A DNA stretch of 25,643 nt, taken from assembly GCA_046757595.1 (NCBI GenBank), contig JBHHYQ010000001.1, forward strand, positions 1 through 25,643, given 5' to 3'. The DNA comes from Candidatus Omnitrophota bacterium. GTDB lineage: Bacteria > Omnitrophota > Gorgyraeia > Ghiorseimicrobiales > Ghiorseimicrobiaceae. A program made the translations under genes and the position numbers. How positions within the stretch are numbered: the first letter of the stretch is position 1; each line of letters opens with the position of its first letter. Positions 14,161 through 19,001 of the stretch are shown piece after piece. Below the pieces are notes generated by a model. That model searched no databases. It was given only the letters and a program-made list of their open reading frames with translations, and was not told the origin of the DNA.

Positions 14161-14980
14161 AGCCCAATTCCTTAATTTGCCTGTAACTAAACACCGGGCC
14201 GTCCACACACACGAACTTTCCCCCAATGTCGCAATGCCCACATTTGCCTATGCCGCATTTCATATGCCGCTCCAGGAGAACGAATATCCGGTTATCGCGT
14301 AACCCGGCCCCGAGCAACCGCAGGGCCACACCGTTTATCATCACCGGCGGGCCGCAGACAAAGGCAAACGCCGCCGCTGGCCGGCGCGGGTTTATCTTGT
14401 CCCAGAGCCGAGTCACCAGGCCAACATCTTCTTTCCAGCCCGGGCCGGGGCGATCTACGGTCATAAGCACCCGGGTGTCAGGCATCTTTGCCCATTGCCT
14501 AAACTCGCCCCGAAAACACAATTGCCGCGCCGACCTTGCCCCATACAATATCCCCACCCGCCCGAACAAAGGACGATTATCAAAGACAAGATTTATCAGG
14601 CTGCGTAAAGGGGCCAGGCCTATTCCTCCGGCGATAAAATATAGGTCGCGGCCTTCAATCTCCCGCCAGGGAAAAGGACGGCCATAAGGCCCTCTCAACC
14701 ACAAATCTTTCCCTCGCCCCAAATTATGTATAACATCGGTAACCTTGCCTACGGCGCGGATACAAAATTCGATGTATCCCGGCCGAGAAGGAGACGATGT
14801 CATCGATATCGGCACCTCCCCTACCCCCGGCAGGCCCACCTGCATAAACTGCCCCGGCCGATAGGAAAATGAACGCGCCCTTTTTTCGTCTTCGAAGCGC
14901 ACACGAAACAGTTTCGTTCGTTCCGCCTGCCGGATAACCTGTTCTATTACCGCCGGATGCGATCGATAAAAATTAAGCAT
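14138..14980 (-). CDS. FAD/NAD(P)-binding 2Fe-2S oxidoreductase (AsrB / sulfhydrogenase gamma / PyrK family)
   Basis: PGQF, GEVPIS, LRGPYGRPF, IAGGIGLAPLRS, CGPPVM, ERHMKCGIGKCGHC...VCVDGPVF. Confidence 0.9.
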   Translation of the reverse strand: MLNFYRSHPAVIEQVIRQAERTKLFRVRFEDEKRARSFSYRPGQFMQVGLPGVGEVPISMTSSPSRPGYIEFCIRAVGKVTDVIHNLGRGKDLWLRGPYGRPFPWREIEGRDLYFIAGGIGLAPLRSLINLVFDNRPLFGRVGILYGARSARQLCFRGEFRQWAKMPDTRVLMTVDRPGPGWKEDVGLVTRLWDKINPRRPAAAFAFVCGPPVMINGVALRLLGAGLRDNRIFVLLERHMKCGIGKCGHCDIGGKFVCVDGPVFSYRQIKELGYVSGPDD

Positions 14981-16628
14981 TATCAATTTGTGTCACCCGG
15001 CGCACCTCGTCCGGGGTAGTGACCCCGGACCTAACCTTCTCCCAGCCGTCGTCACTTAATGTATTCATCCCCTCTTCTATCGCCTTCTTTTTTATTTCAT
15101 CGGCAGACCTTTTCTGTAACACCATCTTCCTTATTGCTTCGCTGACTACAAGAATTTCATATATCCCGGTCCGGCCGCTGTAGCCGCTATTATTGCAAGC
15201 CTTACACCCCTTGCCCTTATAATAGCCGCCGGCAAACGAATCATCGATAATCTTTTCCCCGCACTTATCACATATCACCCGAACCAACCTTTGGGCAATG
15301 AATGCCTCTACGGAAGAGGTGATCAAAAATGGATCGATGCCCATATCCACCAACCGGCTTATCCCCCCGGAGCTATCGTTAGTATGCAGAGTGGAAAAAA
15401 CCAAATGCCCGGTAAGCGCGGTCTGAATAGTAATCTGGGCAGTCTCCGTATCGCGGACCTCGCCAACCATAATTACATCCGGGTCATGACGCAAGATACT
15501 TCTCAGCGTCCGGGCAAATGTCAGATTTATTTTAGGATTAACCTGTATCTGAGATATCCCCCGTAGTTCATATTCTACGGGATCTTCAATAGTAACAATC
15601 TTTCTTTCCCGAGTATTGAGCCGCGACAGGCAACTGTATAAAGTCGTACTCTTCCCCGAACCCGTAGGGCCGGTCACAAAAATAATTCCGTAAGGTTTGG
15701 CAATTAATTTCTGCAACGCCTTATCGTCTTTTGCGGACATTCCCAAGTCCCGTCCATCAAAAAGCATCGTCGTAGGCAAAATTCGGATAACTACGTTCTC
15801 GCCATAAAGGGTAGGCAATACGGATATACGCAGGTCATATTCTTTTCCGGTGATGCGAACCTTCGCCCGTCCGTCCTGAGGCAGACGCCGTTCGATAATG
15901 TCCAGACCGGACATTATCTTTATCCGCGATATGATCGCCGAATATAAATATTTAATATTGTCCGAGACCTGGGTATCGTAAAGTATGCCGTCTACGCGGT
16001 AACGTAGGATAAGCTCATCGCGAAAGCGTTCGAAATGAATGTCCGTGGCCCGGTCGTCGATACCCTGCTGCAAGATCTGGTTGACCAGGTTCACTACCGA
16101 GGCATCCCCGGCCATCTTCTCCAGGTCCTCGACCTTTTCTTTGGGCTGGGCCTCGGCTTTTATCCCCTTGTCTTCCCCCAATATCTTTTCTATGGTATCC
16201 GCGCCCACGCCATAATGCTCGCGTATTGCCGCGGAGATATCTGCGGATGTAGCCAGGACCTTTTCCACGCGATAGCCTAAATTGGTCTCTAAGTCATCCA
16301 GCGGCCACATATCAAAGGGATCGGAGATAGCCACGGTCAGGACATTGCTGCTCAGCTCAAGAGGCATAACCTTATAATGCCGGGCAAGTTTTGCCGGAAC
16401 ATTCTTTATCGCATTCGGGTCTATCTTTGCCTCGCGCAGATCCACGAAAGGAATACCCTGCTGCTGAGAGAGGACCTCGAGAAGCTGGCGCTCGGAAACA
16501 AGCCCCATATTCACCAATATCTGGCCCAGGACCTCTTTGGTCTTGGCCTGCTCTTTAACCGCACTGTCCAGCTGTTCTGCGGTTATTATGCCCTTCTCTA
16601 CCAATATTTCTCCTAATCGTAAAGCCAT
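14973..16628 (-). CDS. gspE: GspE/PilB family secretion ATPase with N-terminal MshEN domain
   Basis: RLGEILVEKGII...EQ, ERRLPQDGR, GPTGSGKSTT, TIEDPVEY, DPDVIMVGEVRD, HLVFSTLH, CDKC...CKAC. Confidence 0.95.
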   Translation of the reverse strand: MALRLGEILVEKGIITAEQLDSAVKEQAKTKEVLGQILVNMGLVSERQLLEVLSQQQGIPFVDLREAKIDPNAIKNVPAKLARHYKVMPLELSSNVLTVAISDPFDMWPLDDLETNLGYRVEKVLATSADISAAIREHYGVGADTIEKILGEDKGIKAEAQPKEKVEDLEKMAGDASVVNLVNQILQQGIDDRATDIHFERFRDELILRYRVDGILYDTQVSDNIKYLYSAIISRIKIMSGLDIIERRLPQDGRAKVRITGKEYDLRISVLPTLYGENVVIRILPTTMLFDGRDLGMSAKDDKALQKLIAKPYGIIFVTGPTGSGKSTTLYSCLSRLNTRERKIVTIEDPVEYELRGISQIQVNPKINLTFARTLRSILRHDPDVIMVGEVRDTETAQITIQTALTGHLVFSTLHTNDSSGGISRLVDMGIDPFLITSSVEAFIAQRLVRVICDKCGEKIIDDSFAGGYYKGKGCKACNNSGYSGRTGIYEILVVSEAIRKMVLQKRSADEIKKKAIEEGMNTLSDDGWEKVRSGVTTPDEVRRVTQIDNA

Positions 16629-16643
16629 TTGAGTTTGTTGAGT

Positions 16644-18020
16644 TTATATTTTCCCGATCAAGTACAACTCCTCCTCGGAGACCTTGTCCATTCTGCCGGA
16701 CATTATCCTGTTGCATCCATCCAACGTGTCTTCAACAGAAACGTACTCCCCTTTTTTGCCAGTGTAAACCTCAGCGACAAAAAAGGGCTGGGTAAGAAAG
16801 TTTTGCAACTTCTTTGCCCGTTCGTATAAGGTCTTGTCTGCGGGAGACAATTCCTCTATGCCGATAACCGTAACTATCCTCTGCAGTTGTTCATATTTGG
16901 CAAACATCTTCAGCGCCTGCTGGGCAATATCGAAATGCTTTTGCCCCACGACCGAGGCATCCAAATTACTGCAGGAAGAGGCGATAGGGTCTATTGCCGG
17001 ATAAAGCCCCAGCTGTATTCTCTCGCGGGATAAGACCAACAAGGAATCCAGGTAACTGAATATCGCCACGACCGCGGGGTCGGTCAAGTCGTCTGCCGGG
17101 ACATATACCGCCTCGATTGCCGTAACCGACCCACCCTCCCTGGCGCGCACCCGCTCCTGAAACTCGCTTACTTCGGACGCCAACGTCGACTGATAGCCAG
17201 TCTCAGAAGGAACCCGCCCCAACAAAGTAGATATCTCCGCCCCGGCCTGAACAAAGCGATAGACATTATCCATAAAAAACAAAACATCTTTATTCAATCT
17301 TTGAAGATATTCGGCCAGGGTCACTCCGGTCATCGCCACCTCAAACCTCGCCCCGGGAGGCTCATTCATCTGGCCAAAGACCATCATAATCTTATCCAAC
17401 ATATTCTGTTTTTTAAATTCAAAATACAACTCGTTACCCTCGCGAATGCGCTCTCCGGCACCGGTAAACACACAAACCCCTTTATGGCGCCGAACGATAT
17501 TATGTATAAGCTCAAGTATCAAAATACTCTTGCCTAATGCCGCCCCTCCCAGTATACCGGTCTTTCCACCCTTTACCAACGGAAACAACAAATCCACCAA
17601 CTTAATCCCTGTTTCCAACACTTGGCATTCCTCGCCGGATAAACTCCGGGGATTAAGGCGGACAGACGAAGCCGCCTTTCTTATCGGGGTGGTTTCGGAC
17701 GCGCCGATATCGCCATTTTCGTCTATCGGCTCGCCGATAACATTAACGATACGCCCGAACATCTCCTTACCAATAGGTACCACAACCCCTCTGCCCAGGG
17801 GCCGGGCCGAAGCATTGTACTGCAAATTCAACGTAGACCCCAAAGCAATACAACGGGCAATCTCATCCTTAAGATGTTCGATAACCTCCAAAACCAATCT
17901 ACGGCGATCGAAGGTATATACCTCTACCACTTCATAAAGATTGGGAACATCTTTCCGGGCATCGAATTTAACATCGACTACCGGGCCCTGAACGGATACT
18001 ACCCTGCCAGCTGTTTTCAT
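16644..18020 (-). CDS. atpD: Divergent F1-ATPase beta subunit
   Basis: [27 protein letters not shown]-loop, [44 protein letters not shown]. Confidence 0.93.
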
Positions 18021-18892
18021 CTTCTGTTACGTATAATCTGCGCGGAAAAACTCTCGCGCATTCCCTTATCTATCAATTCATGATGACTACGAAAATACTG
18101 CAACCTCAATCTCTTTCCACGCTGCTGTAGATTTTGATGGCTTTGCTCCAAATGCACGGTGCGCGCGGAAAACTCGGCTAATTTGCTATCCTCAAATACC
18201 TGTAGCAAAACCTGTCTAATCCAAAGACCGGCCAGATACTCGACCATCGAACTAAGAGAAGACTCGACAATCACCCCCGCCTCTTTGGCGAATAACGAAC
18301 TTTTGCCCTGCGGCGCAAGCGAACTATCCTCATCGAAAAGATACCGACAAGGAAGGATATCGATAATTTCAACCCGTTGCGCAGTAAACGATAACGGCCG
18401 AGGATAAATAATAATCAACCGGGAGATCTGCCCGGTCAATCCCTGTTTAATAATATAATCTCTCAGTTGTAACGCGGCATCATAATTTTGATTTTGCCCG
18501 GGCCCAGAAAACTCCCGAAAACTGCGGCCTATCCCCCGAAGATAATCGGCGCCTTTTCGACCGATAATCAATAACTGTGAATTTTCTGCTCCGGGATAAG
18601 TAAGCGCCGTCCGAATTACACGAGCATTCAACCCCCCCATAAATCCTTCGTCGGAGGTAACCAGAACTATCGCCAGTTTACCGGAACCCCCATCGATAAA
18701 AGGATGCTTAAGCCGGCGAAAATCAACAAAACGAAAAAACCCCCGAAACGCCTCGCTCCACCCGGAGAAACGATCCTTACGGCCAGCCAAGATGCGAAAC
18801 TGCGAAGCGGCAATCCCCTTAAGGACATCCAATAAATCAGCCAACTCTGCGTTCAACTCCATTTCCGTCTTCAACCTTTGAGCAGAATACAC
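18017..18892 (-). CDS. atpG: Divergent F1-ATPase gamma-like subunit
   Basis: GTG start with an AGGAGG RBS; [21 protein letters not shown] and [10 protein letters not shown] align with gamma motifs (TSDRGLCG, SExxARM). 4-nt overlap with atpD. Confidence 0.85.
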
Positions 18893-18972
18893 TATCCCTC
18901 CTTACGCCGCTCGTATTGTCTATTGTCCCAACGACAAAAAACCCAATAATCTTTTCCACATTCAATATTGTT

Positions 18973-19001
18973 ACTATATCCCATTATCAAAAAGATGTCA
19001 A
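18973..19001 (-). promoter_or_regulatory. sigma70-type promoter for atpG-atpD-gspE-asrB-fdhD
   Basis: TTGACA-17 nt-TATAGT on the minus strand. Confidence 0.75.

Follow-up and report, generated by a model that had tools for sequence, protein, structure and literature searches.

A dispersed accessory F-type ATPase genetically linked to a type II secretion/type-4-pilus-like machine in a hydrothermal-vent Omnitrophota genome

A 25,643-nucleotide stretch of DNA (hereafter the window) from the genome of a Candidatus Omnitrophota bacterium (assembly GCA_046757595.1, contig JBHHYQ010000001.1) carries a compact run of genes for the gamma and beta subunits of an F-type ATPase and for a GspE/PilB-type secretion ATPase. 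These genes probably belong to an accessory F-type ATPase that is inherited with a type II secretion system (T2SS)/type-4-pilus-like machine and that serves this machine as an ATP-burning rotor, its operon having been broken up in this genome and retained in two old paralogous versions. The locus is an example of the 'symbiotic' F-type ATPase (sF-ATP)/type-4 pilus locus of Seymour et al. (2023; Nat Microbiol, PMC10066038). A first-pass annotation of the window had proposed an undescribed system, which cannot stand because both the co-location and its reading in terms of attachment or predation are in that publication. Since this kind of locus has already been published, the window adds little to discovery. 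What is new here is the fragmented layout, the presence of two divergent paralogous modules, and a repeated 30-nucleotide (nt) element upstream of the promoter. The features at the center of the analysis are the following (aa, amino acids).

18017..18892, minus strand: divergent F-type gamma subunit, 291 aa (PF00231, 95 bits; GTG start with AGGAGG 6 nt upstream)
16644..18020, minus strand: F-type beta subunit of the accessory ('sF') type, 458 aa (PF02874, PF00006 at 216 bits, and PF22919; catalytic residues intact)
14973..16628, minus strand: GspE/PilB-type hexameric ATPase, 551 aa, with an N-terminal MshEN region (T2SSE 448 bits, MshEN 79 bits)
18973..19001, minus strand: predicted sigma-70-like promoter, TTGACA-17-TATAGT (11/12 consensus positions)
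19021..19050, minus strand: 30-nt repeated element (GGGGGGTAACGATCTATCTTCCCATTTCCA), about 20 nt upstream of the gamma -35 box

All three genes are arranged head to tail, with a 4-nt overlap between the gamma and beta reading frames and 15 nt between the beta stop and the GspE start. The first-pass annotation had described this run behind a near-consensus promoter, and both the coordinates and a promoter scan agree with it. It was also correct that no alpha, delta, or Fo gene lies ahead of gamma, where a divergently oriented FIST gene is found instead, and that no epsilon gene follows beta. Likewise, the motifs it quoted are all present, including EELSPAD in beta and TSDEGFMGG in gamma. Its term 'stand-alone' fits the locus but not the genome, because alpha-like, b/delta, epsilon, and c genes are located on other contigs and are adjacent to gamma and beta in relatives.

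The source assembly is 1.17 Mb in size, is 78% complete, and derives from a hydrothermal-vent bacterium. Its contigs carry C-labels (genome G000), and together they hold seven alpha/beta-family genes and three gammas. A canonical F1Fo set is encoded apart from the window, with alpha-gamma-beta-epsilon on C46, the a subunit on C157, and c-b-delta on C122, which bears out the earlier view that the gamma and beta genes of the window belong to a second, non-housekeeping F-type set. A second trio of gamma (295 aa), beta (460 aa), and GspE genes is present on C87. The remaining accessory pieces are a b/delta fusion followed by two alpha-like genes on C51, a b/delta fusion with one alpha-like gene on C39, an epsilon-c pair on C21, and a lone epsilon on C18. 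The dispersed layout spans at least five loci, and the units that have been kept together are gamma-beta-GspE (twice), b/delta-alpha (twice), and epsilon-c. The window and C87 beta proteins share 54% identity, and because they fall into different subclades of the accessory type they are old paralogs.

The T2SS gene complement is similarly scattered. GspE, GspK, a PilM-PilN fusion of GspL-like architecture, and a prepilin peptidase are encoded within the window, and GspF, GspG, and a secretin are found on other contigs (C25, C189, C41); GspC was outside the search. Shorter T2SSE matches also occur elsewhere in the genome.

The linkage of gamma, beta, and GspE is shared with many relatives. A whole-genome search with the divergent gamma (E<=1e-10) was applied to 401 Omnitrophota genomes (G-labels), and 40 relative loci (L-labels) were picked by gamma match and contig size alone, with their open reading frames (ORFs) labeled by phmmer against a reference set. 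A search for related loci with the beta protein alone gave 6 loci, and the whole-genome gamma search was used for sampling. The gamma type is present in 218 of the 401 genomes, about 30 of which have two or three copies. An operon of the ancestral type, ordered GGDEF-epsilon-c-b/delta-alpha-gamma-beta-GspE-GspF-GspG-minor pseudopilins-GspK-PilM/N-PilO, was recovered in 40/40 sampled loci, and the same operon is present on long metagenome contigs. ATPase and pilus genes are interleaved, with epsilon between GspE and GspF in five loci and alpha ahead of epsilon in five. GspE is absent from one metagenome contig, where GspF comes directly after beta.

Phylogenetic evidence points the same way. 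The window GspE falls within a clade of ATPase-linked GspEs, with a best identity of 69%, and the five other PilB/GspE paralogs of this genome fall outside that clade with a Shimodaira-Hasegawa-like approximate likelihood ratio test (SH-aLRT) support of 100. The nearest relatives common to the window beta and GspE are L023, L062, and L100. For the window beta, hundreds of homologs are found at 66-77% identity, and those with names are assigned to Candidatus Omnitrophota/Omnitrophica except for one labeled Pacebacteria. From the operon of the relatives and the GspE and beta trees it follows that the gamma-beta-GspE linkage is ancestral. The ancestral state is a single operon, from which the fragmented layout seen here is derived. 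The three findings by which the first-pass annotation would have been refuted were not obtained: the link to GspE is conserved, with a gamma-beta-GspE-GspF run inside one operon in all 40 relatives, these are not the only atpG and atpD genes of the genome, and the beta lies outside the canonical clade.

Several further features of the operon were noted in the sampled clusters. A secretin is encoded inside only 3 of 41 loci, and no PilT-like gene turned up within the 41 clusters, for which no dedicated test of PilT, PilP, or PilQ was made. A secreted Peptidase_MA_2 zinc metallopeptidase (258-314 aa, with a signal peptide) is encoded between GspF and GspG in about 20 of the 41 loci, and it is possible that this protein is a substrate or an accessory of the secretion/pilus machine. 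Other recurrent neighbors are histidine kinases, an AAA_22 protein, and a long coiled-coil protein. In L094 (genome G186, contig C12), alpha and gamma are fused in a single 795-aa reading frame. Giant ORFs (from >1,400 to >3,500 aa within the locus, with Laminin_G_3 and Kre9_KNH matches) flank the operon in L021, L099, and L100, in agreement with reports of giant Omnitrophota genes next to T2SS-like loci. A different F-type layout was seen in L103 (genome G358, C1:577000-589000), where a non-accessory order of beta ... a-b-alpha-gamma with a long-branched beta resembles that of N-ATPases.

Residue conservation in beta, alpha, and c was counted over 44 family members. In beta, the P-loop, the catalytic Glu-Arg (GERxRE), the Walker B motif (DNxxRF), the adenine-stacking Tyr, and VYVPADD are kept in 44/44, alongside the family-specific motifs PSETGYQPT, DPLxSSxxNL, and [DE]ELSKxD. 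Both subunits had been called strongly diverged, and this is true of gamma, which reaches only about 32 bits against solved gammas; its predicted model (Atlas) matches the gamma fold with a template modeling (TM) score of 0.87. The window beta is only moderately diverged: it shares 46% identity with the canonical beta of the same genome and scores 482 bits against solved F1 betas. When the beta tree is rooted on alpha, one group (SH-aLRT 93) unites the canonical betas from E. coli, Patescibacteria, and Omnitrophota, except for the long-branched, N-type-like beta of G358. The accessory betas fall outside this canonical group, and their own monophyly is weakly supported (SH-aLRT 57).

The alpha-like proteins have shorter N-termini than canonical alphas and keep the P-loop, and their arginine finger is present in 41 of 44. 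Among the three without it is the second alpha of loci with two alphas, such as C51. In these loci (L012:3874-5334, which is this genome's own C51, and the second alpha of L020 and L060), Ile replaces the arginine finger, changing SVSR to SVSI, which suggests that the Ile-bearing copy may be a catalytically silent alpha-prime subunit. The b/delta fusion combines a single N-terminal transmembrane helix with a b-type coiled coil and the C-terminal half alone of the OSCP/delta profile. The c subunit forms a normal hairpin with an RNPS loop, and the Glu of its second transmembrane helix is kept in 36 of 44, with Q, G, S, or A in the other 8, mostly in one subclade; the c subunit of this genome (C21) retains its membrane carboxylate within FAEAIA. 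The short epsilon was considered as a sign of a hydrolysis-only enzyme and was rejected, since canonical Omnitrophota epsilons are equally short (78-87 aa).

A minimal gamma+beta motor that lacks alpha, such as a homo-hexamer of beta that surrounds gamma and acts on GspE itself, might be envisioned from the absence of an alpha gene in the window and from the occurrence of gamma, beta, and GspE together in both copies. However, the genome has three alpha-like genes with intact P-loops beside b/delta fusions at other loci, and every relative has alpha as a neighbor, which makes such a device highly improbable.

The subunit that is missing from the accessory set is a. None was found in the 41 distinct accessory clusters examined. 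When 15 near-complete carrier genomes were searched for PF00119 (E<=0.01), 5 had no match of any kind and 10 had exactly one. Two of the five a-less carriers, one of them a single-contig genome, run on a V-type ATPase. Among the ten with one match, the a subunit belongs to a canonical (or N-type-like) F operon in the three whose locus was read, and it resides on a contig other than that of the cluster in seven. The genome of the window also has one a subunit, which is in the canonical context on C157. A recurrent ORF of about 285 aa between GspF and GspG was entertained as a hidden a subunit and discarded, as it has a signal peptide only, matches Peptidase_MA_2, and is not polytopic. Overall, the accessory genes account for an F1-type head that is intact, for the rotor subunits gamma, epsilon, and c, and for a stator with a single helix, but not for a dedicated a subunit or ion channel.

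These observations bear on whether the set might be an isoenzyme, a second F1Fo ATP synthase or ion pump with a bioenergetic role that is located beside pilus genes and borrows the canonical a subunit. The intact F1 catalytic residues, the predominance of the c-subunit Glu in the family and its presence in this genome, and the single canonical a subunit here are all compatible with an isoenzyme. Nevertheless, one third of the near-complete carriers (5/15) have no a subunit to borrow, including the two with a V-type ATPase, and the c-ring Glu has been lost in a subclade. The interleaving of ATPase genes with GspE and GspF, the reduction of delta to its C-terminal half, and the shortened alpha N-terminus likewise argue against this role, and an isoenzyme is therefore considered unlikely.

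The preferred explanation is that of a rotor dedicated to the secretion/pilus machine. The complex would consist of an alpha3beta3 head with gamma, epsilon, a c ring, and a b/delta stator, in which ATP hydrolysis would turn the gamma-epsilon-c rotor. The work of this rotor would be delivered to the inner-membrane secretion/pilus platform rather than to ion pumping or ATP synthesis. Judging from gene content, ATP-driven rotation is most likely used by the secretion/pilus apparatus. How the rotor might act is a more tentative matter. One possible, if somewhat doubtful, scheme is that the channel-less c ring acts mechanically on GspF/GspL/GspM or on the membrane pool of pseudopilins, alongside or opposite GspE, and so provides a second, rotary motor. 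On this reading, the survival of the gamma-beta-GspE trio in both modules, with the rest of the operon dispersed, would indicate that the F1 head and GspE are directly linked in assembly or function.

Regulation of the machine can also be considered. MshEN is a receptor for cyclic di-GMP (c-di-GMP), and the MshEN region of the window GspE contains tandem motifs of the c-di-GMP-binding type, RLGEILVEKGIITAEQLDSAVKEQ and VLGQILVNMGLVSERQLLEVLSQQ. Because two such motifs are present at the N-terminus of GspE and a GGDEF gene heads the operon in relatives, the sequences suggest that the machine may be regulated by c-di-GMP, and the whole assembly would then be under the control of this signaling molecule.

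Certain points weigh against a dedicated rotor. A very divergent a-like protein could escape PF00119, and use of the canonical a subunit in trans is possible given that the c subunit of this genome keeps its Glu and that an a subunit is available on C157. The incompleteness of the genome (78%) limits the assignment of a second c subunit and of the matching GspF. Also, operon linkage reflects co-inheritance, not physical coupling. Finally, fragmentation could mean decay in this lineage, though the reading frames and catalytic motifs are intact.

The last of these points can be taken further, such that the dispersed pieces would be remnants of a decaying system that no longer assembles into a working machine. 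A split of the operon into at least five loci would fit with decay, as would the state of the closest relative cluster, L099 (77% beta identity), where a Y1 transposase and other inserts break up the cluster and GspE is missing. On the other hand, gamma, beta, GspE, c, both epsilons, both b/delta fusions, and the three alpha-like genes all have unbroken reading frames, the catalytic motifs are intact, a strong predicted promoter lies ahead of gamma, and the trio has been kept twice. Decay of the system is thus improbable. The arrangement in L099 (L099:9555-12539) is itself unusual, with a 23S_rRNA_IVP gene between gamma and beta, and with a UPF0102 gene and an IS200/IS605 Y1 transposase in place of GspE after beta. 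The break-up of the operon in the window's genome is equivalent to a natural dissection, in which b/delta and alpha have remained together, epsilon has been kept next to c, and gamma-beta has not been parted from GspE, the last grouping surviving in two independent modules.

Ahead of the window trio, the site TTGACA-17-TATAGT (read from 19001 to 18973) has the top score in a promoter scan of positions 12000-19400, at 11/12, and is tied with two other sites. The same scan found 14 sites versus 9.8 expected, and for this reason a site of this class is weak evidence by itself. The adjacent 30-nt element, GGGGGGTAAC(G/T)(A/G)TCTATCTT(C/A)CCATTTCCA, has 17 copies in the genome at <=6 mismatches and 0 in shuffles. 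Most copies are followed at the same distance (about 20 nt) by a TTGAC-like -35 and a TATAAT-like -10 box. Copies are present on C74, C20, C166, C21, C29, C143, C10, C23, C33, C57, C203, and other contigs, and one of them lies ahead of a PilZ gene (C166:2140-2490). The element may be a portable promoter-upstream element or an operator, and in the former role it may let operon fragments be transcribed on their own. No strong promoter was found directly upstream of b/delta (C51) or of epsilon (C21).

The stretch is covered by independent contigs (Logan) from three metagenome runs. The runs holding it are all DNA runs from a hydrothermal vent metagenome, with no RNA run among those listed. In all three runs the Logan contigs break at 19021-19050, and similar breaks occur at 13199-13241 and 20466-20501, all of which are short dispersed repeats rather than rearrangements. 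Misassembly at the gamma promoter was considered and rejected, as the break there is caused by the 30-nt repeat that is dispersed through the genome. Because the metagenome contigs break only at short repeats, the gene order is not an assembly artifact. The repeats at 13199-13241 and 20466-20501 are intergenic and have copies on other contigs, and the second is a GC-rich hairpin (CGTGTTTCGGGACTGCGCCCCGAAAC).

Comparison with known systems places the locus among those of Seymour et al. (2023). These authors reported, from every Omnitrophota class, F-type ATPase genes of a non-respiratory kind lying next to type-4a pilus clusters, including 56 of 111 Velamenicoccia species, with both gene sets no more than 10 kb apart on 57 of 66 contigs, and they proposed a role in attachment or motility on hosts (PMC10066038). 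In the window, non-respiratory paralogs likewise occur within 10 kb of type-4 pilus/T2SS genes in DNA of Omnitrophota origin. The alpha, beta, and gamma are of the same divergent type, the adjoining genes are drawn from the same GspE/PilB-GspF-pilin-PilMNO group, and the same cell-surface role in a host-dependent or predatory nanobacterium can be proposed. The present case differs in that the cluster is dispersed over several loci and exists as two old paralogous modules. In the accessible parts of the text and supplements of that study, there is no mention of the a subunit, the c ring, or epsilon.

Some parallels with protein machines outside the phylum are also instructive. The type 2/3 F1-like X0 ATPases of Mycoplasma comprise seven genes, encoding alpha-, beta-, gamma-, and epsilon-like subunits and three proteins of unknown family (with 3 and 12 transmembrane helices), and their clusters lack a, b, c, and delta (Beven et al. 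2012, PMC3369863). Relatives of these enzymes include the gliding motor G1-ATPase (PDB 9io5), and a link to MIB-MIP has been described (PMC12994834). The first-pass annotation had drawn on this example, and the analogy is sound to the extent that an additional F1-type motor exists beside the housekeeping enzyme and is recruited to a surface function rather than to ATP synthesis. The gene content does not match, however: c and b/delta are retained in the Omnitrophota set, and no Mycoplasma-specific partner was seen in the clusters. Seymour et al. (2023) found that alpha clusters with Mycoplasma type 2/3 and that beta does not (PMC10066038). With PDB entries as references, the score of the window beta is 482 bits for canonical F1 beta and 349 for G1 beta; since the canonical beta of the same genome scores 420 to G1 beta, the window protein has no special affinity to the G1-ATPase beta.

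Canonical F1Fo enzymes (atpBEFHAGDC) and N-ATPases have homologous alpha, beta, gamma, epsilon, c, and b/delta subunits and share all of the beta catalytic residues. In contrast to these enzymes, the accessory set lacks an a subunit, has the order epsilon-c-b/delta-alpha-gamma-beta, carries only the C-terminal half of delta fused to b, displays its own beta motifs, and is embedded in a secretion/pilus operon. FliI/FliJ and SctN/SctO, from the type III export of flagella and injectisomes, are comparable in that a relative of F1 alpha/beta with a gamma-like stalk serves a protein export machine. Those ATPases are homo-hexamers without a c ring, b, or delta; the partner here is a T2SS/type-4-pilus-type machine that already has its own GspE ATPase. 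The window beta reaches only about 113 bits against EscN in the PDB comparison.

F-type rotary ATPases are textbook energy converters. The version considered here has a c ring without an ion channel and is passed on together with a secretion/pilus machine; about half of the Omnitrophota genomes sampled have it. If the proposed function is true, it would represent a new use of the rotor, and it may have a central part in the attachment of these ultrasmall bacteria, predatory or host-dependent, to other cells or in their attacks on them. There is also a lesson for annotation. A survey based on KEGG Orthology (KO) in a 2026 preprint scored gamma as 'missing' in 30 of 176 genomes. These calls probably reflect a failure to recognize the divergent gamma, and annotators should be wary of KO-based surveys where this subunit is concerned.

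The remaining window features of relevance to the machine or its surroundings are the following.

14138..14986, minus strand: FAD/NAD oxidoreductase (PyrK-like; PF00175, PF10418, PF00970)
12318..13091, minus strand: prepilin peptidase of the PilD/GspO type (PF06750 and PF01478; own promoter-like site at 13181..13153)
1314..2330, minus strand: GspK-like minor pseudopilin (T2SSK_1st, 68 bits; 47% identical to the GspK of ATPase-linked operon L022)
1..1329, minus strand: PilM-PilN fusion of GspL-like architecture, cut by the window start (PilM_2; 47% identical to the PilMN of L021)

GspE is followed by the oxidoreductase gene, FdhD, the prepilin peptidase gene (1.9 kb from the GspE end), and tRNA-modification genes. 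The oxidoreductase gene overlaps the GspE stop and is probably co-transcribed with GspE; it occupies the position held by GspF in relatives and is not part of the ancestral operon. GspK and the PilM-PilN fusion are located 12.6 kb downstream of GspE on the same strand, directly after pheA (2320-3426), and housekeeping genes fill the space between. The ancestral operon thus seems to have been split in the window by these intervening genes. The PilM-PilN fusion continues on contig C100, which encodes its C-terminal part and then PilO. Elsewhere in the window, positions 21213-23228 hold one 671-aa ORF in which a radical S-adenosylmethionine (SAM)/DUF3641 part is joined to a SAM methyltransferase, and this ORF is flanked by VTT-domain and DUF2064 genes.

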